Of a stretch of DNA of 64,000 nt, positions 8,467-52,794 are shown in pieces. Each line of letters opens with the position of its first letter. Positions within the stretch are counted from its first letter, which is position 1. The stretch lies in the sequence record OM858838, one strand, 5' to 3'. Under the pieces are notes generated by a model. That model was given only the letters and a program-made list of their open reading frames with translations, ran no database searches and had not been told where the DNA came from. Made by a program: the position numbers and the translations under genes. The stretch is from Shigella phage B2.

Positions 8467-8711
8467 TGGATATCGCATTTGTAGTATCAAAAGTAATTGT
8501 TACAGAGTACACACTGCTTAGGCAGTGGTGGCCTGAACAGTTACGCGAGTCTAGATATGTCGATACAGATATGACTAGAACCTACTTCTTAGATAGACTT
8601 CCCTCTCCTGAATTGTATGAGCTTATGGATAGGCTTAATGCAGAAGGAAGAACCTATCGATTTATGGACTTAAGAGGAGTGGACTCAGAAGATGCGTCAC
8701 ATAATCTTTGA
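8466..8711 (+). CDS. hypothetical protein
   Basis: ORF with ATG overlapping upstream stop. Confidence 0.45.
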   Translation: MDIAFVVSKVIVTEYTLLRQWWPEQLRESRYVDTDMTRTYFLDRLPSPELYELMDRLNAEGRTYRFMDLRGVDSEDASHNL

Positions 8712-10347
8712 ACAGAACCAAAGATATCCAATAGCAATTCTCATCAAACCACAGCAACTAAAGAAGCGTGAGTTACAGGAAGCGTATATCGACCCTACTG
8801 GAATCAAGCCAAAGCAATTCATTGCATTTGACCTTGAGTACAATGGTAAGAAAGCTCCTGTATCTATGCAGAAAGACTATCTTAAAGACCTGTTACCAGA
8901 GCTATGCAACTTAAGAACAGAGTATGTTCTATGTTGCGATAGTGCTTACTTCAAGACTCTAACCAAGCAAACCAAAGCAGAACCTCATTATGGTTATGTA
9001 TTGCCTTGTGCTATTGCTGGTTTCGAGCACTTGAATATTATCTTTTGTCCTAACTATGCTCAGATTTTCTATGACCCATCAGTTCAGGATAAAGTCGATT
9101 TAGCACTTAAAGCATTGGTAGATAAAGTGAATGGGCAATACCAAGAGATTGGTAAGGATATTATTCATTCTGCTTATTACCCTTCAACAGTTGAAGACAT
9201 TGAAGCTTGGCTTGAATCTCTTCATCAATATCCAGTATTGGCGTCAGATATTGAGGCATTTAGCCTCAAATTCTATACAGCAGGTGTAGGTACTATTGGT
9301 TTTGCATGGGACCAACACAATGGAGGAGCATTCGCTGTTGATTACACGAATGAACCAGACAAGGCTAATAGGATAAGGCAGGCTCTTAAGAAGTTCTTTG
9401 AAACTTATAAAGGCAAACTGATTTGGCATAACGCTAGTTATGACTTAACAGTGCTTATCCATCAGCTTTGGATGAAAGGTCTAATAGACCAGAAAGGACT
9501 GCTTAAGGGGTTGCATATTATGTGTCGTGATTTTCACGATACTAAGATTGTAACTTATCTGGCTACAAACTCTTGTGCAGGTAATGAATTGGGACTGAAA
9601 GCTCAGGCTCATGAATTTGCTGGCAACTATGCACAAGAAGATATTAATGACATTACTAAGATTCCTCTTCCAGAGTTACTGGAATACAACTTAGTTGACT
9701 GTTTAAGCACTTGGTATGTTGCAGACAAACATGCAGATACTATGGTGCTGGATGAACAGTGGGAAATCTATAATGACCTAATGTTACCTTCGCTGAAGAA
9801 TATTATTCAGATGCAATTAACTGGTATGCCTATTGATATGGCAGAAGTTAAGAAGGTTAAAATAGAGATGACTAAAGAGCGTGATGGATATCTCAATGCT
9901 ATCCGTTCATTTGCTGTAGTAGATTTACTAGTTCATAACTTGCGTGAACAACATGTAGCTACTCGTAATGCTGCCCTTAAAACCAAGCAAATTACAATGT
10001 CTGATGATGAGACATTAAAAATAGAGTTTAATCCAAACTCTAACCCTCAGATGCAAGAACTCTTGTATGAGATTATGGGATTACCTGTAATCGATTATAC
10101 CGAATCTAAACAACCTGCTACTGGAGCAGATACTTTAGATAAGTTAATTAACCATACAACAGATGACCGTCAGAAAAAGATACTCGAATGCCTTATTAAG
10201 TATTCTAAGGTAGAGAAGATTTTATCTGCATTCATCCCTGCATTTGAAGAAGCACCTTTAGCCGAAGATGGTAACTACTATCTGTTCGGTAGCTATAACT
10301 TAGGTGGTACTGTATCCGGTCGTTTGAGTTCATCAAAGCCTAAATAA
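8692..10347 (+). CDS. DNA polymerase I family, N-terminal part (3'-5' exonuclease and palm start), ends inside the conserved GRLSS..PN.QNIP motif
   Basis: exonuclease-like DIEAFSLKFY region; C-terminus …TVSGRLSSSKPK matches the first half of the Pol I motif …TGRLSS.DPNLQNIP. Confidence 0.85.
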   Translation: MRHIIFEQNQRYPIAILIKPQQLKKRELQEAYIDPTGIKPKQFIAFDLEYNGKKAPVSMQKDYLKDLLPELCNLRTEYVLCCDSAYFKTLTKQTKAEPHYGYVLPCAIAGFEHLNIIFCPNYAQIFYDPSVQDKVDLALKALVDKVNGQYQEIGKDIIHSAYYPSTVEDIEAWLESLHQYPVLASDIEAFSLKFYTAGVGTIGFAWDQHNGGAFAVDYTNEPDKANRIRQALKKFFETYKGKLIWHNASYDLTVLIHQLWMKGLIDQKGLLKGLHIMCRDFHDTKIVTYLATNSCAGNELGLKAQAHEFAGNYAQEDINDITKIPLPELLEYNLVDCLSTWYVADKHADTMVLDEQWEIYNDLMLPSLKNIIQMQLTGMPIDMAEVKKVKIEMTKERDGYLNAIRSFAVVDLLVHNLREQHVATRNAALKTKQITMSDDETLKIEFNPNSNPQMQELLYEIMGLPVIDYTESKQPATGADTLDKLINHTTDDRQKKILECLIKYSKVEKILSAFIPAFEEAPLAEDGNYYLFGSYNLGGTVSGRLSSSKPK

Positions 10348-11053
10348 ATTGGGCTGTTTAAACTTCGTGAATTCGGGGAAAATCCAGAACGGACAATCCC
10401 GAGCCAAGTCAACCAATCATGTCTTAAGAGGCAGAATGGACACTAAAAAATTAGAATATTTATATGAAAACACTTCTTTATCTCAGAAAGAGATTGCTAA
10501 GTGTTTAGGATTAAAATCTGCTAGGGCTGTTCAAAAATATTGTTACAGACACTATACAAGTGCCTATCGTAAAGAAAGGCATTCCAAGCTATTAGCTAAA
10601 GCTAAACTAGGAAGTTTAAACCCTATGTTTGGTAAATCTGGTTTATACCACCCCAGATATCTAGGAGTTGTCTCTGACAACAAAGGGTATTGGATGGTAT
10701 TAAAACCAGAGTGGTATACAGGGCGTAAAAGCAGTAAGCATGTATTTTTACATTCTGTAGTTGTATGTGAACATCTAGGATGGACAGAAATACCGAAAGG
10801 GTATGTAGTTCATCATTGTGATTTTGACCCATCAAATAATGATTTTGATAATTTAGTGGTGCTTACTGTAGCAGAACATATGAGCTTACATGCAGCATTG
10901 AAAGGTGTAACGACTATCTCGAAAGAGAGTACACTCAAGTGGGTGGAAGCGCGAAGGGCTGGTAACAGCCATGATATAGTCTGACCTGTATAGGAATATA
11001 CAGCAGCACTGAATAGTGCGAGTACAGCTTAACGAACTGTACTGAACGTAGTG
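10342..11053 (+). mobile_element. candidate group I intron carrying an HNH homing endonuclease ORF, inserted in the DNA polymerase gene
   Basis: insertion splits a single ultra-conserved motif; proposed 5' exon ends in T (10341), insertion ends in G (11053); joining 10341 to 11054 is in frame and restores SKPNMQQIP. Confidence 0.5.
10436..10984 (+). CDS. HNH homing endonuclease
   Basis: VVHHCDFDPSNNDFDNLVVLTVAEHMSLH HNH motif; GAGG SD before ATG 10436 (track ORF starts further upstream at non-ATG 10349). Confidence 0.8.
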   Translation: MDTKKLEYLYENTSLSQKEIAKCLGLKSARAVQKYCYRHYTSAYRKERHSKLLAKAKLGSLNPMFGKSGLYHPRYLGVVSDNKGYWMVLKPEWYTGRKSSKHVFLHSVVVCEHLGWTEIPKGYVVHHCDFDPSNNDFDNLVVLTVAEHMSLHAALKGVTTISKESTLKWVEARRAGNSHDIV

Positions 11054-11995
11054 AATATGCAACAAATCCCATCCTCTAAGAGTCCTTATGCCAAGCCTAT
11101 TAAGCGATGCTTTAAAGCTGGTAAAGGTTGGCTTCTTATTGGGTTAGACTTTGCATCTCTAGAGGACCGTATTTCAGCTCTGACAACCAAAGACCCCAAT
11201 AAACTTAAAGTTTATACTGATGGGTATGATGGTCATTCTCTCAGAGCATTCGCTTACTTTGGCGACCAAATGCCTGATATTCAGAATACAGTGGATAGTA
11301 TTAATAGTATTCAGGACTTATATAAGGACTTTAGACAAGAATCTAAAGCTCCTACTTTTGCACTTACCTATCAAGGTACTTATCACACATTGATGGCTAA
11401 CTGTGGCTTCCCAGAAGACAAAGCGAAAATGGTTGAAAAGAGGTATCACGAACTCTATTTCGTCTCTGACCAATGGGTAGACGCCAAGTTAGCACAAGCC
11501 AGCAAAGATGGTTATATCACTGCTGCATTCGGATTAAGAATCCGTACTCCATTACTCAAAAATGTTGTCTGGGGAATTAAACAAACACCATATGAAGCCA
11601 AAGCAGAAGGCAGAACTGCTGGTAATGCTTTAGGTCAGTCTTGGTGCTTGTTAAATAACCGAGCAGCAAATGAGTTTATGGAACGTGTATGGAATTCTCC
11701 TTATGCAGATGTAATCAAACCATGCGCTCAAATTCATGATGCTCAGTATTATCTGGTTCCAGATGATATTGATATTGTTCATTGGGTTAATGAGAACTTA
11801 GTTGAGTGTGTTCAATGGCAAGACCATCCCGATATCTATCACGAGGAAGTGAAGTTAGGAGGAGATTTAAGTGTCTTTTACCCATCATGGGCTAATGATA
11901 TCTCCTTAAAGAATGGAGCTTCTAGAGAAGAAATCTTAGATACATGTGAAGTTGGATTGGATAAGTATCTTCACCCGGAGAAATATAAAAAATGA
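11051..11995 (+). CDS. DNA polymerase I family, C-terminal part (fingers/palm with motifs A and C)
   Basis: begins NMQQIP (second half of the split motif), DFASLEDR motif-A-like, QIHDAQYY motif-C-like. Confidence 0.85.
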   Translation: MNMQQIPSSKSPYAKPIKRCFKAGKGWLLIGLDFASLEDRISALTTKDPNKLKVYTDGYDGHSLRAFAYFGDQMPDIQNTVDSINSIQDLYKDFRQESKAPTFALTYQGTYHTLMANCGFPEDKAKMVEKRYHELYFVSDQWVDAKLAQASKDGYITAAFGLRIRTPLLKNVVWGIKQTPYEAKAEGRTAGNALGQSWCLLNNRAANEFMERVWNSPYADVIKPCAQIHDAQYYLVPDDIDIVHWVNENLVECVQWQDHPDIYHEEVKLGGDLSVFYPSWANDISLKNGASREEILDTCEVGLDKYLHPEKYKK

Positions 11996-12369
11996 GTATC
12001 TTACAGTCCCCTATTGATAATGCTCCTGCAATCTTACAGGAAGCACATCGTTGTATTGCTGACAGAGCACATGAACGTGACCAAGAATCTGAACGTTCAA
12101 TGGAACGCACTGTAGCAGCCTTCAATGCAATGTATAAGCTCAACCTGACAGAAGAACAGGGTTGGATGTTTATGGTCTTCCTGAAAGCTGCAAGAGCTTC
12201 AGGAGGCTCATTCAAGCTTGATGACTATGTTGATGGCTCTGCTTACTTTGCGTTAGCTGGTGAAGCTGCTATGCCACATCCTCAATTAGAACTGTCACTT
12301 TCTGAACCAGAAATGACTAGAAAACATGCAGAACATTTCGGAATTCCATTAGGAAAGGAACAAATCTAA
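11992..12369 (+). CDS. hypothetical protein
   Basis: ORF with ATGA overlap to polymerase stop. Confidence 0.5.
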   Translation: MSILQSPIDNAPAILQEAHRCIADRAHERDQESERSMERTVAAFNAMYKLNLTEEQGWMFMVFLKAARASGGSFKLDDYVDGSAYFALAGEAAMPHPQLELSLSEPEMTRKHAEHFGIPLGKEQI

Positions 12370-13133
12370 TGCAAGTTAAGTATGTAGACCATATGGGTAA
12401 TGACCAACGTATTGTTGATGTTGCTCGTCAGTCATTTGCTAAGACAGATGCCACTGTACGTACTGAAGCTCAGAACCAAGGATTGATTCGTTATTTAGCT
12501 GAAGGTATTTCTTCTAAAGAAAGAGATTCAATTATCTTATCTATCCTGAAAGGTGTAAGTAATGAATTCTATTTTGATACTGAAGAAGATGCCGAGAAAG
12601 CTGCTGAAGAATTGTATAGAGATATTCGTCACCAAGCAGTGCATTGGACTCCATTTGCTCATACTGCAATAACCCTTCAGATGCAGGCTCCTATTCCTAT
12701 TCGTACCCAAGCTTTTAAACATAAGCAGGGTTTAGTAGAGAATGAGGAATCTCGTCGATATATCAGTACAACGCCTGAAATATTTGTACCTGAATTTCGT
12801 TTAAGACCTGAAGGTTCAATCAAGCAAGGTAGTGCTGGTATTCATCCTGCTAATGATGATTGGAAACATACATACATTCAGATGACACAGGATGCTGTGT
12901 TTACTTATGAACGTATGATTGCAGAAGGTATTGCTCCTGAACAAGCCAGATTCATCTTACCTCAAGGTGTAGAAGTTAACTGGACTTGGACTGGCAACTT
13001 ATTAGCTTTTGCTAACTTCTATAACAAAAGAAGTGATGCCCATGCTCAACAAGAAATCCAAGATTTAGCTGAGATGGTTCGTGCAATCATTGAACCACTA
13101 TTTCCAATATCTTGGAAAGCTCTTACTCAATAA
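12369..13133 (+). CDS. hypothetical protein
   Basis: ORF, coupled start. Confidence 0.5.
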   Translation: MQVKYVDHMGNDQRIVDVARQSFAKTDATVRTEAQNQGLIRYLAEGISSKERDSIILSILKGVSNEFYFDTEEDAEKAAEELYRDIRHQAVHWTPFAHTAITLQMQAPIPIRTQAFKHKQGLVENEESRRYISTTPEIFVPEFRLRPEGSIKQGSAGIHPANDDWKHTYIQMTQDAVFTYERMIAEGIAPEQARFILPQGVEVNWTWTGNLLAFANFYNKRSDAHAQQEIQDLAEMVRAIIEPLFPISWKALTQ

Positions 13134-18442: not shown

Positions 18443-18688
18443 ATGGATTCTACAATTAGTTCAAATGACCATTTGCCTGTAATAATCATTAAGATTAAAG
18501 AGATTAAAACTTTCAAAGGTACATTTACAATTATTCCTGAGAATGAAGAACAAACTGAGTTCGAAGTTCGTCCAGAATATATTGCTAAATTTGCACCGAA
18601 GGTTGGAGGCTACTATATAGTCTATGCAGGAGGGTACGAATCTTACTCAGAAGAAGACCCTACTCCACCTAAAGTTGAAATCCAATAA
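18443..18688 (+). CDS. hypothetical protein
   Basis: ORF with AAGGA SD. Confidence 0.5.
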   Translation: MDSTISSNDHLPVIIIKIKEIKTFKGTFTIIPENEEQTEFEVRPEYIAKFAPKVGGYYIVYAGGYESYSEEDPTPPKVEIQ

Positions 18689-20190: not shown

Positions 20191-20218
20191 AAGCCCCATC
20201 CTTGGGGCTTTTCTTTTA
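20191..20218. terminator. bidirectional intrinsic terminator between convergent + and - strand genes
   Basis: stem aagcccca/tggggctt flanked by A-run upstream and T-run downstream. Confidence 0.55.
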
Positions 20219-23200
20219 GTACAAACTCACCAGAGGGTGTACTGTAAGTCCATTCAATGCTGTACCCATCCCAACGTTATAACTCAGACTACCAGTTACT
20301 AAGTTGGCTTCAGTAATGTTAGGTAATCCAGATTCAACACTGTTACCAAACATCAGGAACAATGCTCTCAATGGATTCTCTCTAATCGTTCTCAGAATGA
20401 TTTTCTGGATACGAATCTTATAGTTCAGGAACCAAGTTAAACCAATAGCATCCAGATAGAATCTGGTACGACTTGGTAACACATCATAGTTCACGAACTC
20501 ATCCATCACTCTGTTAAGCGCACTGTCTTTATCCATTGGATTACTCTTACGAGTAGTCAAATGTTTATACAATGAATACTTAGCAACAAAGTCACCATAC
20601 TGGATTGAACGGTTCAGTAAGAAGTACACGTTACTATCTCTTGAAAGGGTAACTTCCTTAGCAACACGTTTAACACTATCTGGAATACCAGATGTGTATT
20701 CATCCATCTTATTAAGTAATTTATCTTTCAATGAATAGTTATCTTGCTGTCCTAAATCCTCTGCAATGGTAGGCAGTAAACCTGCTTTGATTAAATCAGC
20801 AACAGGGTTACGAGCCTGAGAATCTTTCAGTTCTGAAATCTTTCTCTGATATTCGTCAGCCATTTTAGGATTATGGTTTACAGCCAGATAGTGAGAATAC
20901 TCGTTAATCAGTTTCTCATTCTTTCTGTACTCCTCAGCAGCCAGTACAGCAGTAGACATATCCTTAGCCATAGTCACAGGGCTTACACCAACAGTAGCTA
21001 AGTGAACCATGTTAGAAACAATGTTCGCTGCTGATACAACTATTGAACGAACTACAATCCAATCCTTCATTTCCTTCACGAATTCCATCAGACCACGTTC
21101 ACCAAGTCTCAGATAGCGAGCAGCATTCTTACCTAAGAAGGTTTCAGCAATGCTGGTGAAAGCTTTCTGGAACTCTTTAGAGTAACCAGTCTGACCAGTC
21201 CACATATTCAGTACAGAAGGTTCACGATAACCAAATGCGTTATTCAGTAAATCCTTACGTACTTTAATCTTACCATCAGGCCAAATCTTCTTAGCTTGTT
21301 CCTTCATCTCAATAGGCATCAGTTCATAAATCTCTTTTAACTGATGGTCTGTAGAGTTCTCATCCATAGTAATGTATTGGTATGCCCTGCCTTCTCTGGC
21401 ATCCTTCACATACATTTCATGGAGTCTCTGGAGCAACATTTCATTGTATCTGGCTGCCTGAATCTCCTCAGCAATACGACCTTCCCAAGCACCGATTACC
21501 TTAGTGAAATCATTATCTACATCCAAATGTGCTTCTTTGTTAGCTCTAGGCATCTGATATGAGTAACCCATAATTGAACCAGCACGATTCAATACAGGTT
21601 GCATATATGAGTTATTGCCAGTAGGCATAGGAGCATTTGCATCAAATAAATTATCAATACTGCTTCTCTTACGAGTAGATAAATTATTCTTCTCAGTAGC
21701 TCTCCATATACCCGGAGTCATAGCACCATTCACAGTTCTACCTGTAATTGGGTTTACTCCACCTACGGTGTTTTGCAGGGTACTCATTACACCAGCAATC
21801 CAACGAGGTTCACCACCATTGTTTGAATGGTAGTAATACATTGGTTCCTTGTTGGTATCCTGTGGGTCACGAGCAACCTGAGCACCTCTGGTATACCCTC
21901 TACGAGATAAGCTTGGTTCATCTTTAATAGATGCAATAATCACTTTCTTGTTAGGGTCTGACAGAGTAGGAGTAAATCCTTTAATCCCAGCTAGTGCTTG
22001 GTTTTGACCAGACTTAGCTAACTCTGCACCCTGCAAGCTTGAATAATATTTGAGAGTGAAAGTCATCCCATTATTATTTGGTTCACCTTTAGTCATCTCT
22101 CTATTAATCAAATTACTTACAGTAGCAATATCAGTCTGAGATAACTCTTTCAGTGCTGCCAGAGAAGCCATAGTATCAACCAATTGAGTAACAGTATTAA
22201 CTGTTGCATCATTAGGTCTAACTCTGCCAGTACCAATTAAACGAGCAATAGCTGCTGCGTTAGGTAACTGATAAGCCAGTGGACTAACTCCATGAACCAT
22301 TTGTTTAGCTAATCCATATGCAGACTTAATATAGAAAGGAGCATTCTGTGCACCTGCTGTCTGCAATTGAGATTCAATAGAAGCAATCTCTTTAGCCAGT
22401 TCAGTTGGATTGGTTAAGAGTTCATTCAGTCGTGCCAAGTCATATCCATTGGCAAACAGATAAGCCATATCAGTATTAGCAACTACTCTCTGAATAGCTT
22501 CTTTCTCTGTTTGGTTCAGGGATACAAATGTACTCTCAATCATACCCGGAACCATCTCACGAATAATCTGACGTGCTCTATCAGCAGCCATATTCTTCTG
22601 AGTCAGTAAGGTATGAATGGTGCTATTGGTTTCGTTAGAACCAATGAACTCATTAATCAGTTCAGCAACAGTACCTAACTTGCCATTCTGGTGAATGGTC
22701 ATATAAATGTTAGTGATAGCATCACGTACATCCTGAGCATCTTGGTCATTGAATACTGCTGAACCAGCAGTGATACCAAATGCTACAGACTTAGGTACTT
22801 TCTTCTCTACCTTGAGTAACTGTCTACGGATAGTGTGACCAAAGGATTTGAGTTTATCCTGAGTAGTATCAGTGATTTTCTCTGCACCTCTAACCAATCT
22901 ACCAAACAGATTGTCTCTGGCTTCACTATCAACATGACTAATATTCTTAGCCAGTTTAGTTAAGCGAGAAGCAACGTCAGTATTACCCAAAGACTTAGTA
23001 GCCAAACCCGATAACCAAGTAAGAATGGCATTGGTTAAATCACCAATACGTTCTCTCAGAGTTGTAGCTGGAGTCTGTCTGGTACGCTTAACACTAATCT
23101 GAGAAAGTTTATTTCTCAGTTGTTCATTGGTTTCTGCCAGTGCAATGAAGTTAGCCAGTCTATTAGTACGACCAGTAGCATCAGTAGTCACAGCAGTGTT

Positions 23201-26200
23201 ACCAAATACAGCATCATATCTTTGTTTAGCTAATGCCATTTCACTAGCTGAACGATTATTAGGGTCAGTTAAGAAGTCTTCTACTTTCAAGGTATCTCTG
23301 GCTTGTGCATACAAACTACGTGCAACCAGAACACTTGGAGAAAAGTTCTCTAAACCATACTTCATAGAAACTTGCAGCATCTTGAATACAAATGCTTCTT
23401 TCTCACTCATGTTAAAACCATGAGCAATCAATGCATTTGGAGAGTTATCAATCTCTGGGTCGATACTATCTACCAGAAGTTTTTCCTGATAATGGTCTAA
23501 ACCAGAGATTTGCTGACCAGTATTCTTAATCACTTTAATGATATTTGACTGGAGATAATCCAGTGTATCAGTCAAATGATTCACATGGTCTTGCGTAGCT
23601 TTACCAGCATCCAGTTTATTAAACAGAGTTTCTGCATCTAATCTATTGATGTTATTAGCATTGGTTTGAGCATAGCTAGTTTCATCATTAGATTTAACCG
23701 GATTAGTAGAGTCAGTTAAAGCAACTGTATGCCCTAACAGACGTGACCAGTAAGAGGTAACATCTGGATTAGAGCCAATAGCAAACAGGCGCTTAATAGA
23801 ATCAGCTAACTGTTTGAGTACATTGGTAACAGTCCCAGCAATAGTCTTCTGAGTCATTGCATCAATCATTCTTGGGTTAACTAATCCCCATGCAATAAAC
23901 TCAGCAGTAGCTTGAGACATATTACCAGAAGCGATATGAGTATTAATCAGGTCTACTACAGCATCAGTTTCTGGATTGGTGCTTGAATATTCATTCACAA
24001 ACTTATTCATCAATCCTTCAATTGAAGCTACTTCTACTCTCTGAGCAGGAGTAATTGCTTCTGGATTGCTGTAATAGTTATGAACAGTATCAGCAGTAGC
24101 AGCATGAATTAACTCATGCATTACTGTCTCAATAGACTGAGAACCAATATAGATGTTCTGGCCTTGTGTAAGACCCAAGAACGTGTCATTAAACTCAACC
24201 TTAGTATCAGGTGTCATTTCCTGTTGAACGCCTGAGAGAGCTTCTGGTGAGCCTACATACACATTAATATCATTAGGGATAGAATTGATAATCTTATCCA
24301 GAATGAAACCAGTGATTCTATTCTGGCGAGAAGGCAGAGATTTAGCTGCCTCTCTTACAGCAGCAACCACATCACCTTTAGCCAGAACTTTAACACCTTC
24401 ATGACCTTTTACAGTTCTACCATTTCTATCCAGAGCCTCAGTCATCTGACGAGTAGGAGGAATGGTTACTCTACCTTTAGGTAGAGATACAGAATCCATA
24501 GTAGGTAATTCAGTATTGGCTACTAACTGTTCCAGAGGAGTTCTGGTATCAGTTGCTTCTCCATCAGTCTGTTTACCATTCTTAACATTGAATGGAATAT
24601 TGGCACCAGTCATCTGGTTAATGGAGGTAATAGCCTCACCACCTAACAGACCTTGTTTAATAGCAGTCTGAGTAGCAGCTTCTCTCTTAAGCAGAGTAGT
24701 GAATGCTTCAACCACTTCTGGACTAGTAGGTGCATTAGTTTCATCAGCACCAATCATTTCCATAATTCCACGGAAAGACTGTTCCAGACGAACATCTGCT
24801 TCTGGACCTAATTCCTCTGCCAGATTCACTCCATCCATTGCTTGCTCAAAACGGTTAGTGAAATCTTGCAGTAAATCGAATTCATTCCAGCTTTGCAGAA
24901 CACCTTGGTTAATAGCCTGAGAACCAGTATCCAAATGAGATACAGCATTGATGTAGCCATCGAATACGTTCAGAGCATTGTTAGGATTGATATCACGAGC
25001 AATAGCCTGCATAGCTGCTTCTACAGACTGAACCAGTAAAGGCATTACACGAGTACCCGGTTCAGTATAAGTAGGCATATCTACACCGAAGGTAGAACGA
25101 CGCATCTTACCATCCAGTTCTCTACGTCCTCTGGATTCCATTCTGTGTACGTCAGATGGAACACGCCCTTCCTCACTCAGAAGAATACCTTCATTCAGCT
25201 TTTCAACATCTAAGTTGTTAGCAGTAAACCAAGAATTGAAGATTGGCATTGAACCAATCAAGTAATTCTTAATGTCGTTGTACTGCTGCTGAGATAGAGA
25301 TTCATATTTAGATAACTTACCTTCTTTACGAAGTTCAGTTTCTAATCTCTCTACTTCTTTATTCCAACGAGACATGAATACTTCATGCATTACAGCAGCA
25401 GCATAGACCATCATCTTGCCACGATTAACTACAGTACCAAATTCATTAGCAATGGATTCGTTTACTGCTGCACCAATACCAATCTTGATGTTCTGAGTAA
25501 TAGCTTCGATTTGTTCACCGTCAAATTCAAACATAGTCACATCCTGACCTAAGTTGATAGGTGAACCAATCTGAACCCAAGAACCATTTCTGAATACCCG
25601 AGCAGTAGTCAGTTCATTAGTTGTATTAGTTAAGTCATTGATGTGTTCAATAGCAGCATCACGTTCTTCCTGATTAGTAGCTGCATCAACTGCTCTCAAT
25701 GCTTCTGTGATTGCTTCGTAATATCCATTAGCAATACCCATAGCAATCTTTCTATTGATTGCAGTAGCACCGCCTGAATAAACAGTTACTGTTACTGGAT
25801 TCTTAAGTAAACCTCGACCAATCTGAATTGGATGGTCTACATTTTCACCTTCAACAATATTCACATCACCAATCAGTTTGGATGCAGCAAGAGTAACCCT
25901 CATCTGATTCTTCAGACGTTCAATTTCACGCATTTCTTTTTGCTGGAATTGACGTGGTTTATTCTTCATTGCAGCAATTCGGTTAGGAATATTTCTAACT
26001 GAATCCATCATTCTATTGATGTATTGCTGACTATCAGCAGCAGCAGTCTTATACAGGTCTAAGAATCCCGGTTCTTCAGCAGCATCATTATACAGACGGT
26101 CAGACTGCCCATAGAAGAAACCGCCCTTCTCCAATTTATTCAGTAAGTCCTGGTTCACATCTTTCAAACCAAGCTGAACAATGGAGTTAAATGGTCCATT

Positions 26201-29200
26201 AGTAACACCATCAAGCTCCAGCATTACATGAGTCTGGAATGAGGTCTTACCTTGTTCTACAGCCAGTTCATATTGAGCCTGTGCATACAGAGCATGGAGA
26301 GTCTTAGTCTTCTCCTTACCTGCTTTAACAGCCTGCAACAAAGTCTCAGCATCACTATCACTGATGGCATCCTGATTCTCAGCAGCTTTAAGGATATCGA
26401 TAGCATCTCTGAACAGACCAGTACTGATAGCTTTATTCAGTCTATCTCTGGCTGTTTCAGAAGACAGCTTATCAACAGCAATATCTAAGCCCTGAGCAAT
26501 TGCATAATCAAGGAATGCACCATGCTGAGGGTTATTCAGTTCAATGGTAGATGGTTCAACAGTAACCAGTTCACGATGTAATTTAGCTGACTGAGGATTC
26601 AGGTCACCAGAGTTAAGCATCATACGGAAGTTACTGATTACGTTATAACCAAAGTAAACAGGAGTGGTAGCCAAAGGTAATCCAGCTTCAACCATTCTAG
26701 TTAAACCATTAACCAGAGTATTTATATCTCTTTCAATGGTACGGTTAGAACCCTGAATAGATTTCAGGTGAGCACCGTTAGTATTCTCTTCTGACTGAAT
26801 GCCTAACATTCTACCAATCCACTGAGTACCTAACTTATCAAGCATCAGGTCATGCAGACCCATGTTAATGAAGTGAGGTTGTTTGCTAGCTTTGTTACGA
26901 GCAGCAAGCATCTTCTCAGGGATATCCTGACCACCACCATTCTTAACTTTAGTGCTTTGACCTTTTGGTGGAGTACCAAAGTATGCACCTGCTCTTTCTC
27001 TCTGAGGATTAGTCAGTTGACCTAACAGGTCATTAGAATTCTGCATCAATTCTACTAAACGAGTAGCAGCAGGAGACTCTTCATTCATACGAATGAATAC
27101 ACGAGAGTTCTTCATGTTTGAGTCATTTACTTTAGTAGAACCAACAGCAGCTAATTCAGAGTTTTTAACAACTGATTCCTGAACCAGATTAGCATTAATC
27201 ATTACGTTCAATACTTCAGATGCCATTGCTTTAGACACAGCATCACGTACAGAGATAGGTGCATTAGGGTCTGCATTGATACCTAATACTCCAAAGATTT
27301 CTCTGCTTAAATCATCAATAACATTCTGACGGTCAGTACCAACGTTACGCAGTAAGTCAGTCTGTTCTACAGTTGGCCTAGTCTTGTTATCTAAACCAAG
27401 AATATCCATTACTGTACGGTCATCATTGAATGTAGTTTCAGATGCATTACGTACAAACCACTGCATCATTCCAGCAGTCATTGCTTCAATTACTGGCTGC
27501 GGTAAGAAGTAAACATTCTCACCATTGATGTTTCTAACTTCATCAAAGTACTCAACAGGATAAGTTTCCCAGAAGATACGCTGACCTTCAGGAGTTAATT
27601 TACCCCAAGACTGAATCAGAGATTGTTCAATAGCAGGGACTAAACCAGCAAACTGACGAAGTACATTTACTTCTTTCTCAGTTACTTGTTCTGGTTTGAT
27701 ATAACCTTTAAACAGATTCTGAATCTGAGTAATAGGATTAGAACCATTAGTAAAGATGCTATTAAGTCTCCCAGAGAAATTAGAAGTTCTCAGGAAAGCT
27801 GAACGTTTACCGGTAGGTTTAAACCATTTCTTAACTTGGTTTGTAGCTTGATATTCTTTATCTACATCAGAAGTAGACTTAGCATCAGAGCGTATTGTCT
27901 CTGCTTGCAGTCCATTCAGAATGTCATAGTTAACACCTTTCTCTGAACCAAGGTCTAATTGAGACTCATCCATCAGGTCAGTTTCTACATCAGTAGGTTT
28001 TTCCTGTAACTGGATATCAGATTCTACAGTATCTGGTTTCTCAAACAGTTCACCCTGTACAGGTTCAGTACGTACAGCTTCCTCAGACGCTACTGGCTGA
28101 GTTATTTCAGGCTGTACTGGTGTTTGTACCTCTTCCTGAGAAGTCTGCTCAGAAGTCTCTACAGGAGCTTCTACAGTAGTCTGCTGAGATACAGGTTGAG
28201 GGAAAGTATTCCTGACGTGGTTCAGGAAATCAGTACGTGCCTGAGAAGGTGTAGCCCATACTTCACGAGTACTACGTAAACTGAAGATATGCCCATCTGG
28301 TGTCATAACGTAAGGTACATTAGTGTCACCATAATTAAAGGAAGACAGAACATCCTGTTTACCAGTAACTGTGTCCTCTCCAGGAATAATAGTAGTTTTA
28401 CCACCATTAACCGGAACGGCACGAATACCCCCCATGTCTTTACCAATAGCAATATAGTCTTTGCCATTATAGGTAAAGTACTGACCTAACTGCATATACA
28501 GTGCCTGCTGCTGTCCAGTAAATTCAGCAGATTTCATCTCAGGACCGGCAGGGATACCACTAGAAGTAGTCTGCTGAGGAGCTGGTTTAGTTTCTTTTTT
28601 AACAGGTGCAGATTCCTGAGTCTGGTTGTTCACTTCTTCAGAAGCAACAGGAGCAGACTGTGCAGGGATATCTACAGGTTTACCATCTACCAGTTGACTG
28701 GTAAGGGTATGAGCCAGTCTTACTGCATCAGCATCATTACGAATCTCTTGGATTAATCCTTTAGAACGTACCGGATGGTACGTCATTGGATTTCCATCGA
28801 GAGACAGGTATGGCTGACCAGTAGTAGGATTAATTACTTCTACAGGTTGATTTCCAGTAAAGTTCTGAGCAGCTTGGTCAAAGGCAGCAGCCTTAGTTTC
28901 CATATGTTCAGCAAAGCGATTCAGGTGGTCTAACAGACCCTGAGCACGAGCAGTATCACCTAATGATAATGCACGGAAGATACCTTGCTGATATTGCTGG
29001 ATACCAATAAAGCCATCCGAACCTTCACGTACATCTTTACCTACTTGGCTCATAGCCTTACCAGTAGCAGAGATGACCTTAAGTTTATCCACATCCTGCT
29101 GACTTAAACCAAGAGTATCAGCAGAGTTAACTAAACGGTCAGCTACATCTGGAGTAATAGAAGATGCATCTAAGTTCATCTGAGCCAGAACAGATTTAAC

Positions 29201-31441
29201 ATTCTTCTGAACTTCAGGAGATTTGTAAGTCTCTGGAGTAATCTCAGAAGGTAATGATTCCATGACTTTAGTCATTTCATCAGGAGTCAGTTTAAATCCT
29301 TCAGCAGTAGTCTTAACTGCCTGTACATCAGGATGATTCAGTACAGCATTAATATTATCAATAGCAGTCTGATACTGAGCTTTCTGGTCTTCTGGAGCAG
29401 CATCCATCTGTGCCTGAATCTGAGGTAATGCTTCTTCATATGCAGAGATAACACTGTTACCAACAGTAGCTAAATCTCTACGAGAAGCTTCATCTAGATT
29501 ACGTTCTTTAATGGCACGAGAGATTCTCAGAATAGAATCAGGAGAACTGATTTCTTCTTCTGGAATAGCTTTGAATACTTCTTTGGCAGCAGGTTCAGTA
29601 ACAGCATCTACAGCTTTAGTAGTTACAGTTGGTTCTACTGGCGCTTCAGTATTAGTTTGTGGGGCAGCTTGTTTAACTGATTCATTGGCAGCAGATACAG
29701 TATTTCTAAAGTCTTGTGCTCTGCTTTCAGTTCTACGAGTCTGTCTTGCATCAAATGCTGTACGACCTTGTTGAACTCCTTCTTGGATTGCTCTAGGTGT
29801 CTCACTGATAGCTGAACCAACAGCACCCATACCCGCACCAGCAATAGCAGATTCAGCAACGTTTGAACCAATACCCTCAATGAGGGATTGAGATTCGTCA
29901 GCAGAGCTACGTACCCCGAGATTAGAAGCGAACTGACCAGAAGCGCCCTGTAATGCTTCCTCAACAGTCTCTTTAGCAGCATTCTGTGAAACCCTTGAAG
30001 ATGCAGCCAGTAATCCTTTACCTTCCAGTAAAGATGGAGTTAACAGACGTGATTCAAAGGGAGCAGCAACCTTACCAGTTAATGCACCTAAAGTACCTGC
30101 CACAGCAGAAGTAACATTACCTGCTTGAGTACGTACCTGACTTCTAGCCTGAGATGGTGTAGCACCTTCAGCAATAAGGTCACGATACATTGGTGATTTT
30201 TCAGCTAACTGAGCATCAGTTAATTTATCAATCTCATCCAGTGACTGTTGAGCATTTGAACCAGCTTCTTGGAAACCAACGTAACCAATAAATGCTCTTT
30301 CAGCAGCATCCTGTAGACGCTTTCTACCAAACTCAGTAGCAGCTAATTTAGTAGCAAAGTCCTCACCATACTCTTGAGCCAATTGCTTCAAAGCACCACG
30401 AGTAGCTAACTTACCTACGATACCACCAGTCAGTAAGTCTGGAGCAGATTCAGCAATCAGAGTAGTTAATGCACCTGGTGAAGTACCATACTGTTCAGCA
30501 GTATTAACGAACTGACGTAACTGTTCCTTAGCACCAGCTACTAATGGATTATCACCTTTAGCAATATCAGCAGCTTCTCTTGCTGCACCGCCTTGTTCAA
30601 AGCGTTGCTTATTGGCTTCGATAACAGATTGTTCATATTGAACAGCAGGAGAATACTGAGAACGCTGTTCATCAACGAATTCTTTTAATGGCTTATCAAT
30701 ACCTGCTTGGTCTAACAGAGTAGGTTGCCCTACTTGGTCTTCTTGACCAGTAACATTAGCAATTAAATCCTGAGCATTCTGTAATGCTAAGTTACCTAAA
30801 CTAGTAGCAAATCTTGCAGTATTACCTGCCCATACTTGGGCAGCATTACCAATGTCTGAAAGTTCCATAGGAGCATTTTCAAACTGGTCTGTATTAGCTT
30901 GAGCAATATTTAATGCAAGTTTGTCTCTAGCCGCTTGAGGACCATACTTCTGCTGTAAAGCAGAGATAGGCATATCTTTTAAATCAGCAAGATATTGGTC
31001 ATTTGGATTAGTCTGTGCAGCTTGATTAGGAGCTACATAGTTAGGATGACTTGGGTCAAAAGGACCAGTACCACCAAATTCAGGAGATACTTGAGGATTA
31101 ATCATCCTACGATAGAAAGGCTTAGTTGCTGCAATAGCATCATAGTTAGCCTGCATATCAGGAGTGGTTGGTTGAGTCTCAGGAATATTAAAATTATTAA
31201 TATTCTGACCAGTCAACATTGCCTGCATCTGTTCACGAGTATATTTAGGACCAGATTCAGCCAGACGAATAGCTTCCTGTCCTCTCTGATATTCAGGAGA
31301 ACCTACAGGGAAATCTGTTTCTACTCCGGGTACTGGAGCACCCATCTCTACTTGTTTCTGCTGAGTGGCTTGATTTAGTTGTTGTGTTTTTTGTAAATCA
31401 ACTCCAGCTAATTGTTGTTCTTTTTCAAATCCGGTAGCCAT
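20216..31441 (-). CDS. giant virion RNA polymerase (N4 vRNAP-like), 3741 aa
   Basis: T7-like RNAP motifs: A (MLELDG, D1744), B (R1876-x3-K1880-x7-Y1888-SG), C (VFDG, D2161); Y-to-D spacing of 273 residues equals that I recall for N4 mini-vRNAP; position downstream of structural genes. Confidence 0.85.
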   Translation of the reverse strand: MATGFEKEQQLAGVDLQKTQQLNQATQQKQVEMGAPVPGVETDFPVGSPEYQRGQEAIRLAESGPKYTREQMQAMLTGQNINNFNIPETQPTTPDMQANYDAIAATKPFYRRMINPQVSPEFGGTGPFDPSHPNYVAPNQAAQTNPNDQYLADLKDMPISALQQKYGPQAARDKLALNIAQANTDQFENAPMELSDIGNAAQVWAGNTARFATSLGNLALQNAQDLIANVTGQEDQVGQPTLLDQAGIDKPLKEFVDEQRSQYSPAVQYEQSVIEANKQRFEQGGAAREAADIAKGDNPLVAGAKEQLRQFVNTAEQYGTSPGALTTLIAESAPDLLTGGIVGKLATRGALKQLAQEYGEDFATKLAATEFGRKRLQDAAERAFIGYVGFQEAGSNAQQSLDEIDKLTDAQLAEKSPMYRDLIAEGATPSQARSQVRTQAGNVTSAVAGTLGALTGKVAAPFESRLLTPSLLEGKGLLAASSRVSQNAAKETVEEALQGASGQFASNLGVRSSADESQSLIEGIGSNVAESAIAGAGMGAVGSAISETPRAIQEGVQQGRTAFDARQTRRTESRAQDFRNTVSAANESVKQAAPQTNTEAPVEPTVTTKAVDAVTEPAAKEVFKAIPEEEISSPDSILRISRAIKERNLDEASRRDLATVGNSVISAYEEALPQIQAQMDAAPEDQKAQYQTAIDNINAVLNHPDVQAVKTTAEGFKLTPDEMTKVMESLPSEITPETYKSPEVQKNVKSVLAQMNLDASSITPDVADRLVNSADTLGLSQQDVDKLKVISATGKAMSQVGKDVREGSDGFIGIQQYQQGIFRALSLGDTARAQGLLDHLNRFAEHMETKAAAFDQAAQNFTGNQPVEVINPTTGQPYLSLDGNPMTYHPVRSKGLIQEIRNDADAVRLAHTLTSQLVDGKPVDIPAQSAPVASEEVNNQTQESAPVKKETKPAPQQTTSSGIPAGPEMKSAEFTGQQQALYMQLGQYFTYNGKDYIAIGKDMGGIRAVPVNGGKTTIIPGEDTVTGKQDVLSSFNYGDTNVPYVMTPDGHIFSLRSTREVWATPSQARTDFLNHVRNTFPQPVSQQTTVEAPVETSEQTSQEEVQTPVQPEITQPVASEEAVRTEPVQGELFEKPDTVESDIQLQEKPTDVETDLMDESQLDLGSEKGVNYDILNGLQAETIRSDAKSTSDVDKEYQATNQVKKWFKPTGKRSAFLRTSNFSGRLNSIFTNGSNPITQIQNLFKGYIKPEQVTEKEVNVLRQFAGLVPAIEQSLIQSWGKLTPEGQRIFWETYPVEYFDEVRNINGENVYFLPQPVIEAMTAGMMQWFVRNASETTFNDDRTVMDILGLDNKTRPTVEQTDLLRNVGTDRQNVIDDLSREIFGVLGINADPNAPISVRDAVSKAMASEVLNVMINANLVQESVVKNSELAAVGSTKVNDSNMKNSRVFIRMNEESPAATRLVELMQNSNDLLGQLTNPQRERAGAYFGTPPKGQSTKVKNGGGQDIPEKMLAARNKASKQPHFINMGLHDLMLDKLGTQWIGRMLGIQSEENTNGAHLKSIQGSNRTIERDINTLVNGLTRMVEAGLPLATTPVYFGYNVISNFRMMLNSGDLNPQSAKLHRELVTVEPSTIELNNPQHGAFLDYAIAQGLDIAVDKLSSETARDRLNKAISTGLFRDAIDILKAAENQDAISDSDAETLLQAVKAGKEKTKTLHALYAQAQYELAVEQGKTSFQTHVMLELDGVTNGPFNSIVQLGLKDVNQDLLNKLEKGGFFYGQSDRLYNDAAEEPGFLDLYKTAAADSQQYINRMMDSVRNIPNRIAAMKNKPRQFQQKEMREIERLKNQMRVTLAASKLIGDVNIVEGENVDHPIQIGRGLLKNPVTVTVYSGGATAINRKIAMGIANGYYEAITEALRAVDAATNQEERDAAIEHINDLTNTTNELTTARVFRNGSWVQIGSPINLGQDVTMFEFDGEQIEAITQNIKIGIGAAVNESIANEFGTVVNRGKMMVYAAAVMHEVFMSRWNKEVERLETELRKEGKLSKYESLSQQQYNDIKNYLIGSMPIFNSWFTANNLDVEKLNEGILLSEEGRVPSDVHRMESRGRRELDGKMRRSTFGVDMPTYTEPGTRVMPLLVQSVEAAMQAIARDINPNNALNVFDGYINAVSHLDTGSQAINQGVLQSWNEFDLLQDFTNRFEQAMDGVNLAEELGPEADVRLEQSFRGIMEMIGADETNAPTSPEVVEAFTTLLKREAATQTAIKQGLLGGEAITSINQMTGANIPFNVKNGKQTDGEATDTRTPLEQLVANTELPTMDSVSLPKGRVTIPPTRQMTEALDRNGRTVKGHEGVKVLAKGDVVAAVREAAKSLPSRQNRITGFILDKIINSIPNDINVYVGSPEALSGVQQEMTPDTKVEFNDTFLGLTQGQNIYIGSQSIETVMHELIHAATADTVHNYYSNPEAITPAQRVEVASIEGLMNKFVNEYSSTNPETDAVVDLINTHIASGNMSQATAEFIAWGLVNPRMIDAMTQKTIAGTVTNVLKQLADSIKRLFAIGSNPDVTSYWSRLLGHTVALTDSTNPVKSNDETSYAQTNANNINRLDAETLFNKLDAGKATQDHVNHLTDTLDYLQSNIIKVIKNTGQQISGLDHYQEKLLVDSIDPEIDNSPNALIAHGFNMSEKEAFVFKMLQVSMKYGLENFSPSVLVARSLYAQARDTLKVEDFLTDPNNRSASEMALAKQRYDAVFGNTAVTTDATGRTNRLANFIALAETNEQLRNKLSQISVKRTRQTPATTLRERIGDLTNAILTWLSGLATKSLGNTDVASRLTKLAKNISHVDSEARDNLFGRLVRGAEKITDTTQDKLKSFGHTIRRQLLKVEKKVPKSVAFGITAGSAVFNDQDAQDVRDAITNIYMTIHQNGKLGTVAELINEFIGSNETNSTIHTLLTQKNMAADRARQIIREMVPGMIESTFVSLNQTEKEAIQRVVANTDMAYLFANGYDLARLNELLTNPTELAKEIASIESQLQTAGAQNAPFYIKSAYGLAKQMVHGVSPLAYQLPNAAAIARLIGTGRVRPNDATVNTVTQLVDTMASLAALKELSQTDIATVSNLINREMTKGEPNNNGMTFTLKYYSSLQGAELAKSGQNQALAGIKGFTPTLSDPNKKVIIASIKDEPSLSRRGYTRGAQVARDPQDTNKEPMYYYHSNNGGEPRWIAGVMSTLQNTVGGVNPITGRTVNGAMTPGIWRATEKNNLSTRKRSSIDNLFDANAPMPTGNNSYMQPVLNRAGSIMGYSYQMPRANKEAHLDVDNDFTKVIGAWEGRIAEEIQAARYNEMLLQRLHEMYVKDAREGRAYQYITMDENSTDHQLKEIYELMPIEMKEQAKKIWPDGKIKVRKDLLNNAFGYREPSVLNMWTGQTGYSKEFQKAFTSIAETFLGKNAARYLRLGERGLMEFVKEMKDWIVVRSIVVSAANIVSNMVHLATVGVSPVTMAKDMSTAVLAAEEYRKNEKLINEYSHYLAVNHNPKMADEYQRKISELKDSQARNPVADLIKAGLLPTIAEDLGQQDNYSLKDKLLNKMDEYTSGIPDSVKRVAKEVTLSRDSNVYFLLNRSIQYGDFVAKYSLYKHLTTRKSNPMDKDSALNRVMDEFVNYDVLPSRTRFYLDAIGLTWFLNYKIRIQKIILRTIRENPLRALFLMFGNSVESGLPNITEANLVTGSLSYNVGMGTALNGLTVHPLVSLY

Positions 31442-47639: not shown

Positions 47640-47657
47640 AAATACCTCTATTTTTTC

Positions 47658-48890
47658 TTATACAACAGCACCAGTTGAGTCTACCCATGCAGTTCCATTA
47701 AACCAAATAGGTTTACCTAACGTAGTATCAAAATGTTGTGTACCAGTTAATACTCCAATAGGTCTTTGTGCAGTAGTACCACTCAGTCCTAACGTAACAA
47801 TAGGAGTCAAGGTTACTACAATATTACCCGGCAGATAAGTTAACTGACCATTCACTACACTTTGAATATATACGTTGTTAGGTACACTAGAAGGAATCCA
47901 ATAGTAAACCTGAGACACAATATCATACAGGATACGCTTACCATTTAGAGTCTCTACAGTGTTATCACTTTTGATAACCTCTGAGTCCTTCATGTTAGTT
48001 GCTCTAGCAATCTCATACAGGCTTCTATCTGGAGATTCTAATGTAACTAACTCACCTCCAAGCTGAACTACTAATCTATCATTAGTAGATAATGGTTCAG
48101 TCAGTAAGATACGTTTGTTATCTTGGTCTACAGTATAAGATTGAGTTGATAATCCACCTTGATATCTCAATCCATTCTTAAAGATTGCTGGTACAGTTTG
48201 GAAGGTATATGGAATAACAATTACCTGTTCTCCGCCAACTGCTGCACCATTGTTATAAATCCAGTTAATAACAGTCCAACTATCAATGTTTGGATTATCA
48301 GGTACAGCAGGATTACCTGAAAGCATCAGAACAACTTCATCACCTTGCTCTAATGGCTGAGCTAAAGTAACAGTCAGATTAACAGAGTTAAAAGTAAATC
48401 CTCTGCCTACCTGTTGACGGAAACCTTCCACATAAATTTCTGGAACACCAATAGTGTAATCAGGAACTACAATAGTAGTTTCTCCACCAGCAGCAGAACC
48501 ATTATTAAATACAAATGGGATATATGCACCAGTGCCTGTAGCAGCACCGCTATTAGATGAGCCAACAACTACCCAGCTACCAGTAGCAGTAGGGTCACTT
48601 GGTAATACTCCAGTACGGTCACCTTCTACATAGAGGTAATCAGTATAGATTCTGACACCTGTAGGGGTAGAAGAATACACACGAGTATACTTAGCAGTTG
48701 TAGGTAATTCCTGTAACTCTGTAACTGAGTCAACTGTAATCAATACACCATAATCATTTAAAAAATTATAGATGAACTGAATCTCACCCAGATTATCATA
48801 TACAGTTTTAACTACATCGTAAGCAGTACCAATGAATTTCTCCACCATACCTGCTTGATTACCACAGCACGTATTTGTAGTTCGAATCAT
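47658..48890 (-). CDS. tail-associated structural protein
   Basis: Gly/Thr/Val-rich beta-type composition, late operon. Confidence 0.5.
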   Translation of the reverse strand: MIRTTNTCCGNQAGMVEKFIGTAYDVVKTVYDNLGEIQFIYNFLNDYGVLITVDSVTELQELPTTAKYTRVYSSTPTGVRIYTDYLYVEGDRTGVLPSDPTATGSWVVVGSSNSGAATGTGAYIPFVFNNGSAAGGETTIVVPDYTIGVPEIYVEGFRQQVGRGFTFNSVNLTVTLAQPLEQGDEVVLMLSGNPAVPDNPNIDSWTVINWIYNNGAAVGGEQVIVIPYTFQTVPAIFKNGLRYQGGLSTQSYTVDQDNKRILLTEPLSTNDRLVVQLGGELVTLESPDRSLYEIARATNMKDSEVIKSDNTVETLNGKRILYDIVSQVYYWIPSSVPNNVYIQSVVNGQLTYLPGNIVVTLTPIVTLGLSGTTAQRPIGVLTGTQHFDTTLGKPIWFNGTAWVDSTGAVV

Positions 48891-52134: not shown

Positions 52135-52209
52135 GGTTCTATGGTCCAGTGGAAAGGATATTCCCCTGTCACGGGAAAGGCCCGAGTTCAATTCTCGGTA
52201 GAACCGCCA
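52135..52209 (+). tRNA. tRNA-Asp (anticodon GTC), CCA encoded
   Basis: hand-folded cloverleaf: acceptor ggttcta/tagaacc, anticodon loop CTGTCAC, T-arm ccgag-TTCAATT-ctcgg. Confidence 0.8.
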
Positions 52210-52213
52210 ATTA

Positions 52214-52288
52214 CAGGATATAGCTCAAGTTGGTTAGAGCACTCGGCTCATAACCGAGAGTGTCCAGGTTCGAAACCGGGTGGAACCA
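52214..52288 (+). tRNA. tRNA-like, anticodon CAT (Met or Ile2); acceptor stem does not pair by hand-folding, possible pseudo-tRNA
   Basis: canonical D-arm tagctcaagttggttagagca and anticodon arm ctcgg-CTCATAA-ccgag, T-loop TTCGAAA. Confidence 0.4.
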
Positions 52289-52298
52289 CCAAATAATG

Positions 52299-52383
52299 AA
52301 GAGAGTCGTATAGCGGCCCAATACGCCACCCGAACGTTACGACTAGTACGGAGAACACGCAGGTTCGAATCCTGCCTCTCTTC
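52299..52383 (+). tRNA. type II tRNA-like element, anticodon unresolved
   Basis: acceptor aagagag/ctctctt, perfect T-arm gcagg-TTCGAAT-cctgc, 85 nt; anticodon arm not foldable by eye. Confidence 0.35.
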
Positions 52384-52389
52384 ACAAAT

Positions 52390-52463
52390 TGTCTCATAGC
52401 TCAGTAGGTCAGAGCGTTCCCCTGATAAGGGAAAGGTCACTAGTTCGATTCCAATTGAGACAA
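52390..52463 (+). tRNA. tRNA-Ile (anticodon GAT)
   Basis: acceptor tgtctca/tgagaca, D-arm, anticodon loop CTGATAA; T-stem has two mismatches. Confidence 0.55.
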
Positions 52464-52605
52464 CCATCCAATAGATTACAGTTCGTATCTCTTAGGGGAA
52501 TACACTTGTAATTGCGGCCCGATAGGAAAGGGTAATTTCTCGACGATGGGAGTAGACCATTGACTGTTTGGAATAGACAACTGACGCTGTGAACGAGAAC
52601 AGGAA

Positions 52606-52692: not shown

Positions 52693-52794
52693 AATAGTTC
52701 TTATCAGGGATTACTTACTACTATATATCATACATTACCTCGCCTGGTGTGTTGGTGTTACCTCGGTAGATAAGTAATCCACTAATAAGAATTT

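Follow-up and report, generated by a model that had tools for sequence, protein, structure and literature searches.

The 64,000-nucleotide (nt) stretch of the Shigella phage B2 genome (sequence record OM858838) analyzed here, termed the window and supplying all coordinates (features on the + strand unless stated otherwise), encodes a family A DNA polymerase in two halves, i.e., the open reading frames (ORFs) 8692–10347 and 11051–11995. The upstream ORF terminates with …GRLSSSKPK directly before its stop codon, and the downstream ORF opens with a GTG-encoded M followed by NMQQIP. Between them lies an insert of 712 nt (10342–11053), which is directly preceded by T10341, has G11053 as its last base and harbours a third ORF (10436–10984) for a predicted HNH homing endonuclease. 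From its sequence and predicted structure, the insert is classified as a group I intron of subgroup IA2 and of the T4 td type. The locus would then consist of exon 1 (8692–10341), providing 550 codons for the 3'-5' exonuclease domain plus the beginning of the polymerase domain and ending …SSKP with U10341, of the td-like IA2 intron (10342–11053), and of exon 2 (11054–11995), reaching from NMQQIP… to the stop codon.

Joining of 10341 to 11054 yields an open frame of 2592 nt, which aligns without gaps to the likewise 2592-nt polymerase gene of Salmonella phage FSL SP-058 (97.4 % nucleotide identity, 67 nucleotide differences and 4 amino acid differences, all far from the junction). The restoration of the gene is exact. 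At the DNA level, the joined sequence would read …TCAAAGCCT/AATATGCAA… (a slash marks the junction or insertion point here and below), corresponding to …AAGCCU/AAUAUG… in the RNA and to the junction-spanning peptide SKPNMQQIPSSK containing SKPNMQQ. The Pfam profile DNA_pol_A is divided accordingly: positions 14–126 match exon 1 up to residue 550, the last one encoded by this exon, and positions 127–303 match from residue 1 of exon 2 onwards, while the spliced protein gives a single continuous match (14–303, 136 bits). A preliminary description of this DNA had assigned the polymerase to the two ORFs, placed the break inside the motif GRLSS..PN.QNIP, delimited the 712-nt insert by the preceding T and the final G, and noted that joining the ends is in frame. 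All this agrees with the present data: the coordinates are correct, the profile is split between positions 126 and 127, both flanking peptides are seen with the break falling between P and N of the conserved RLSSxxPNxQxIP motif, and the joined frame is collinear with the intact gene of FSL SP-058.

A comparison with relatives lacking the insert had been proposed at the same time. The polymerase region is 96–97 % identical to that of the Salmonella phages FSL SP-058, SP-076, UTK0001/2, SP154, S5 and As2, all belonging to the Schitoviridae, subfamily Humphriesvirinae (SP-058 is classified in the genus Ithacavirus), and the whole window is collinear with SP-058, which places it in an N4-like phage akin to these Salmonella phages. 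The nine closest genome records (96–97 % identity) each contain one uninterrupted 2592-nt polymerase gene, and the matching pieces of the window are parted by exactly 712 extra nt; the insert is absent from all nine, constituting a presence/absence polymorphism. The intron-less allele of the SP-058 type reads …TCATCAAAACCAAACATGCAACAG… at the insertion site. By DNA comparison alone, three registers of the insert are possible (starting at 10342, 10343 or 10344), since both ends carry the repeat AA. Only the rules for group I introns, i.e., a U•G pair in P1, a terminal guanosine, P9.0 and P10, single out 10342–11053.

An in-frame TAA (10345–10347) is located one codon into the insert, stop codons occur in all frames, and 712 is not a multiple of three. 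These features rule out an intein or a programmed translational bypass, by which the interruption would be handled at the level of the protein or the ribosome and whose probability is regarded as practically nil. Conserved polymerase motifs are, as is generally known, favoured by inteins too, and the length of the insert comes near a multiple of three (712 = 3 × 237 + 1); however, no intein domain was found, and the sole Pfam domain, HNH_3, belongs to a distinct ORF that has a start of its own.

The insert contains a complete group I core. P1 (10335–10357) is formed by the exon end AGCCU (10337–10341) and the guide GGGCU (10351–10355), with U10341•G10351 at the 5' splice site and a loop at 10342–10350; an additional A10335-U10357 pair may extend this helix. 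P2 is absent. P10 pairs AUU (10348–10350) with AAU (11054–11056), the first three bases of exon 2. P3 is composed of CUUCGUG (10363–10369) and CGCGAAG (10950–10956), P4 of 10373–10378 and 10397–10402, and P5 of 10383–10385 and 10391–10393, J4/5 and J5/4 being A-rich. P6 (GCC 10403–10405 with GGU 10904–10906) is followed by P6a (UCAA 10409–10412 with UUGA 10898–10901), whose loop accommodates the HNH ORF. J6/7 (UAAC) precedes the 5' strand of P7, as in td, and P7 itself (GACUAU 10912–10917 with AUAGUC 10976–10981) forms a pseudoknot with P3. P7.1 (10918–10927, CUC-GAAA-GAG) is joined by AGUA to P7.2 (10932–10945, CACUC-AAGU-GGGUG). Both of these signature helices of subgroup IA are present, and in this subgroup they are reported to be linked by G-U-A (PMC3428280). 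The 3' part comprises P8 (10957–10970, GGCUG-GUAA-CAGCC), J8/7 (10971–10975, AUGAU), P9.0 (AC 10984–10985 with GU 11051–11052), P9 (10986–11003), P9.1 (11006–11019) and P9.2 (11021–11043) as well as the tail GAACGUAGU and the terminal guanosine G11053. In total, 68 of the 69 predicted pairs are standard pairs in the window copy. The minimum free energy fold of an ORF-deleted construct recovers P1, P3, P4, P5, P7.1, P7.2, P8, P9, P9.1 and P9.2. Earlier candidates for the 5' strand of P7, located beside the ORF start (GGCAGA) or just 5' of P3' (GGUGGA), were replaced by the td-like pairing GACUAU/AUAGUC together with P7.1/P7.2.

The intron of the T4 td gene is the archetypal self-splicing phage intron and belongs to subgroup IA2. 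It shares with the window intron the order P3-P4-P5-P6(a)-[ORF]-P7-P7.1-P7.2-P3'-P8-P7'-P9-P9.1-P9.2 with the ORF in the P6 extension, and in the 3' core the two introns agree in 106 of 164 aligned columns. Long strings are common to both, namely GACAAUCCCG in the P4/P5 region, UAACGACUAUC, GAUAUAGUCUG, the P9.2 loop UUAACGA and the CUGAAC tail; the J8/7-P7' stretch GAUAUAGUC matches the td intron and also the consensus of Rfam family RF00028. In contrast, td interrupts a thymidylate synthase gene, possesses P2, and carries its ORF, encoding the GIY-YIG enzyme I-TevI, wholly in the loop, whereas the ORF of the window intron encodes an HNH protein and reads on into the 3' core.

Homologous inserts, found by blastn with the insert as query and fetched with the ends of each intron defined, occur in the polymerase genes of the N4-like Gamaleyavirus phages PhAPEC5, PhAPEC7 and Moonfish, of the T7-like phages (Autographiviridae) PS3, BF25/12, PPWS1, Vi06, RCIP0039, phiB1_1 and Valrath, and of RCIP0099 (a 42.6-kb Klebsiella phage record without family classification) and DES1 (unclassified Caudoviricetes). 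The ORF has been lost in two of them, the introns of RCIP0099 and Valrath measuring only 230 and 272 nt, respectively. The Gamaleyavirus phages, like phage B2 members of the Schitoviridae, have their annotated introns at the corresponding site …SEP/NLQTIP with the same guide GGGCU, and these introns are 68–69 % identical to that of the window over 93 % of its length. They differ in belonging to another subfamily with exons only ~70 % identical, in an intron length of 706 nt, and in an ORF product of 59–60 % protein identity. In case of PhAPEC5, the GenBank record already labels the insert an intron. In the literature searched, no paper connected group I introns with PhAPEC5 or Schitoviridae. 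For N4-like phages, such introns have already been described in other genes.

For covariation analysis, 11 ORF-deleted introns from polymerase genes of T7-like and N4-like phages were aligned by hand, helix by helix and with N-padding, since a plain MAFFT alignment had misaligned P1, P8 and P9.1. In the hand alignment, 97.6 % of 754 cells hold standard pairs, compared to 29–46 % when the partners are displaced by 1 to 3 columns; two-sided changes are seen in 39 of the 73 pairs, and none of 500 shuffles reached any of the observed pairing measures. Pairing is complete (100 %) in P3, P4, P5, P7.1, P7.2, P8, P9, P9.1 and P9.2. In P1, the U•G pair is invariant (11/11) and six of the seven pairs change on both sides, as do all six pairs of P8 and three pairs of P3. 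Compensatory changes are also seen in P4 and P5 and, among the related introns, in P6a; P7.1 and P7.2 vary on both sides. P9.0 and P10 are paired in 77 and 79 % of cells, respectively, again with changes on both sides. With respect to P6, it was observed that a G•U pair is changed to A·C in BF25/12 and phiB1_1, which may be interpreted as an isosteric A+•C wobble.

The members of this intron lineage occupy four insertion sites. The site P/N of …PN(L/M)Q… is used in the window as well as in PhAPEC5, Moonfish, PPWS1 and RCIP0039, and the site PNL/Q, 6 nt downstream, in PS3, BF25/12, Valrath and phiB1_1; two further positions lie in motif B of the polymerase gene, one used by Vi06 and DES1 and the other by RCIP0099. 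At all four sites P1, and usually also P10, is complementary to the respective phage's own exon ends. It is a separate observation that closely related introns reside only 6 nt apart in one motif (P/N versus PNL/Q), with guides altered to fit. The introns of the T7-like group, comprising PPWS1 and RCIP0039 (site 674), PS3, BF25/12, Valrath and phiB1_1 (site 676) and Vi06, RCIP0099 and DES1 (motif B), resemble the window intron in their core (77–84 % identity) and mostly in the HNH family encoded; they differ in the host family and in guides altered for the sites 6 nt downstream or in motif B.

The window site …SSKP/NMQ… corresponds to position 674 of E. coli Pol I, which is also the intron site in the DNA polymerase genes of SPO1, SP82, Bastille and Pf-WMP3, all reported to be of group I (PMC3428280). 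These introns, of the Bacillus phages SPO1 (I-HmuI), SP82 and Bastille and of cyanophage Pf-WMP3 (I-PfoP3I), agree with that of the window in the codon boundary P/N of …PNLQNIP, the HNH nicking endonuclease and subgroup IA2 (PMC3428280), and differ in hosts and phage families. They were likened by published description and are not among the blastn matches of the insert. The IA2 intron of Pf-WMP3 likewise has no P2, possesses P7.1/P7.2 and carries an ORF from P6a through P7, and its splicing was demonstrated in vivo and in vitro (PMC3428280). According to the same article, position 676 is the intron site of phiL7 (PMC3428280), and splicing in vivo and in vitro is also reported for the self-splicing IA2 introns of the T7-like phages PhiI and W31, whose HNH ORF lies in P6a (Bonocora and Shub 2004 as cited in PMC3428280).

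The exon bases next to the insert match the guide. Compared to the intron-less SP-058 allele (AAA CCA/AAC), the window reads AAG CCT/AAT: the synonymous differences at positions −4 and −1 give rise to the G-C and U•G pairs of P1, while P10 arises through the likewise synonymous difference at the third base of exon 2. Eight synonymous differences are clustered between −25 and +44 of the junction, in a 2-kb region with an average of ~0.85 per 100 nt elsewhere; by a hand Poisson estimate, the chance of such a cluster is of the order of 1e-5, with the caveat that the first 600 nt of the polymerase gene are also more divergent and that the gene is mosaic anyway. This pattern would be expected of homing with co-conversion, or else of selection for splicing.

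The HNH ORF (10436–10984; 182 amino acids), situated in the P6a loop and running into the 3' core, is a real ORF by its domain content, in agreement with the preliminary description. Pfam HNH_3 matches residues 104–149 with 41.4 bits (cut-off 24.8), and the product shares 53–64 % identity with the ORF products of seven related introns, including the conserved motif HHCD…NN…N…H; the alignments extend over 175–178 residues with six of the seven homologues and over 119 residues with the shorter phiB1_1 ORF. Its Shine-Dalgarno sequence AAGAGG (10426–10431) is contained in the hairpin UGUCU-UAAG-AGGCA (10420–10433), which is preserved with compensatory changes in 8 related introns. The last ~75 nt of the ORF (~25 residues) double as ribozyme core from P6' to P7'. 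The ribozyme core between P6' and P7.2 (window 10901–10984) specifies the C-terminal tail of the intron ORFs (…KGATTISKESTLKWVEA…). The ORFs of Vi06 and DES1 have 22 and 29 % identity to that of the window, which is at most a weak similarity, yet they show the same GATTISKES / GATTIP ending. Therefore, different ORFs have been fused onto one core-encoded tail.

One may ask whether the intron still moves. It might splice but be transmitted by vertical inheritance only, the HNH ORF being a relic or serving another role such as that of a maturase; this is considered unlikely. Such immobility would fit the lack of an evident donor: segment-wise identity is flat across all sequenced relatives (core 77–84 %, ORF body 57–66 %), the segments being roughly equidistant from every one of them, so that none can be named as donor. 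Moreover, the search of IMG/VR for the exact 5' junction gave no match, and no structure related by sequence to the HNH protein was retrieved from the PDB. However, the ORF is full length with its catalytic HNH motif conserved, and the ribosome-binding hairpin has been maintained by compensatory changes. Furthermore, the lack of the intron in the nine closest records and the exon differences clustered at the junction are as expected of recent homing with co-conversion. In the collection searched, the window intron is the first of its kind among Ithacavirus-like phages.

A different possibility, not far-fetched in N4-like phages, is that the polymerase is truly split, the insert being a homing-endonuclease cassette or a dead intron that stays in the RNA permanently, and the 551-amino-acid and ~313-amino-acid chains assembling into the enzyme. 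A precedent exists in the N4-like phage 10Gb, where, according to a preprint, the polymerase gene g39 carries a homing-endonuclease insertion of ~800 bp, reverse transcription PCR gave no spliced product and two recombinant polypeptides were obtained (bioRxiv 10.1101/542787). In addition, the polymerase genes of the N4-like phages Pollock, SP5M, Pylas, phi G17 and ST4 are interrupted by ORF-only insertions with overlapping stops and starts, and in the window both ORFs are open, the second offering GTG 11051 and ATG 11057 as possible starts. The ORF-only interruptions affect the same gene, ~60 codons downstream at most, and contain a homing-endonuclease-like ORF; they are of two types at two places (phi G17 / ST4 and Pollock / SP5M / Pylas). 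They differ from the window insert in that each ORF overlaps the polymerase half on either side and ribosome-binding sites are annotated, and neither a group I signal at E ≤ 1 nor any of the core motifs was found in them. From these sequence features, they look like true gene splits rather than introns. As a side observation, the polymerase halves of Pollock and SP5M bear extra peptide tails between KVY and GYDGHS.

In the window, by contrast, the insert comprises a complete ribozyme core supported by covariation. Such a core is missing from the ORF-only insertions, and a split would leave its intact and conserved state unexplained. No Shine-Dalgarno-like GGAG, GAGG, AGGA or AAGG is present in 11031–11053, and there is neither ORF overlap nor translational coupling, unlike in Pollock, SP5M and phi G17. 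The break would moreover sit between P and N of the RLSSxxPNxQxIP motif, and the fit of exon bases −4, −1 and +3 to the guide is relevant only if P1 and P10 form. By size, the insertion of 10Gb (~800 bp) appears nearer to the ST4 / phi G17 type (~840 nt) than to the family of the window intron (696–712 nt) and may be of the ORF-only type. A permanently split polymerase is accordingly judged highly improbable.

The preferred reading is that the 712-nt interruption represents a mobile td-type group I intron with its own HNH homing endonuclease, spliced from the polymerase mRNA, to which a probability of about 93 % is assigned. The group I intron with HNH endonuclease envisaged in the preliminary description finds support in the full core of the window copy, the homology to td, related introns that pass the RF00028 threshold and the covariation over 11 introns. 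The polymerase would almost certainly be produced as a single chain from spliced RNA. Within the pre-mRNA, the intron would fold with the exon end AGCCU paired to the guide GGGCU (P1), and a free guanosine bound at P7 would attack after U10341. P10 and P9.0 would then align the 3' exon, G11053 would enter the G site and the exons would be ligated, producing an mRNA for one polymerase of 863 amino acids that reads …GRLSSSKPNMQQIP…. On unspliced RNA, translation would stop one codon into the intron. The HNH protein would be translated from the start whose Shine-Dalgarno sequence resides in the conserved hairpin of the P6a loop, and would presumably nick intron-less polymerase alleles near P674/N675 (E. 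coli numbering); recombinational repair from an intron-carrying allele would then copy the intron (homing) together with nearby exon bases. Catalysis by the RNA, activity of the endonuclease and mobility are all presumed by analogy with the known systems described above.

Several points weigh against this reading. Splicing is inferred from the DNA sequence. P7 is invariant across the 11 introns and provides no covariation signal. The hand alignment was fitted around the proposed helices, which biases its pair counts in favour of the structure, most strongly for P1, P8, P9.1 and P9.2; for P3, P4, P5, P7.1, P7.2 and P9, located in ungapped stretches, plain MAFFT gives the identical alignment. 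A fold of the 3' half recovers P7 too, but with a modest thermodynamic z-score of −1.85. The reportedly unspliced insertion in the polymerase gene of 10Gb, which yields two polypeptides (bioRxiv 10.1101/542787), may conceivably be the same kind of element as the window insert. Finally, the automatic test failed: searched with Rfam gathering thresholds, the whole window yielded tRNAs only and no intron match.

The covariance-model search with the group I model, as suggested in the preliminary description, was successful only in part. With a lax E-value, RF00028 partially matches both halves of the insert, i.e., 10752–11003 with 24 bits (E = 1e-3), including GAUAUAGUCU and the P9 region, and 10299–10607 with 15.7 bits; the best score thus stays below the gathering threshold of 50 bits. 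The window copy falls short because ~490 nt of ORF inside P6a break the model. The two ORF-less homologues from Klebsiella phage RCIP0099 (70.6 bits) and Xanthomonas phage Valrath (69.7 bits) pass the threshold, and the intron family is therefore group I by Rfam's own criterion.

Splicing may also be incomplete or conditional, with unspliced RNA serving as an additional mRNA, although this is regarded as quite unlikely. Exon 1 would in that case yield a 551-amino-acid protein containing the complete 3'-5' exonuclease domain, and the amount of this exonuclease-only form relative to the full polymerase would be controlled by the intron. Taken to its limit, as in the case reported for 10Gb, the phage would depend on a polymerase split inside the RLSSxxPNxQxIP motif despite an apparently perfect ribozyme.

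Assuming the spliced product, the polymerase would be annotated as one gene, join(8692..10341,11054..11995), and the HNH ORF labelled as intron-encoded. The element is of a known kind at a published hotspot and is not unexpected for phage biology; its main value lies in correct annotation and in one more data point on the spread of the lineage. A widespread intron lineage gains an Ithacavirus-like phage as host, and now covers family A polymerase genes of two podophage families at four or more codon-level sites, with guides retargeted per site. It offers a natural series for studying the movement of a group I intron and its HNH enzyme between sites and hosts.

Other differences between the window and SP-058 were observed outside the polymerase gene. 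At 12369–13133, a divergent and longer allele of the flavin-dependent thymidylate synthase ThyX (Pfam Thy1) is encoded (254 versus 210 amino acids in SP-058); the gene gives no blastn alignment ≥200 nt to SP-058, while its flanks are 98 % identical, which suggests that the ThyX allele next to the polymerase gene was replaced. An ORF of 81 amino acids at 18443–18688, just after an SSB-like gene, lacks a counterpart in FSL SP-058 as well as a Pfam match. The virion RNA polymerase ORF (20216–31441, − strand) encodes 3741 amino acids as compared to 3595 in FSL SP-058, owing to an in-frame insertion of ~144 amino acids (extra DNA at ~28189–28613) without Pfam match, which may be a variable loop or an extra domain. 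The tailspike region (45331–48042) is likewise replaced relative to SP-058, mostly giving no alignment ≥200 nt and showing 70 % identity over 427 nt. Seven tRNA genes are clustered at 52.1–53.4 kb (52135–53366).

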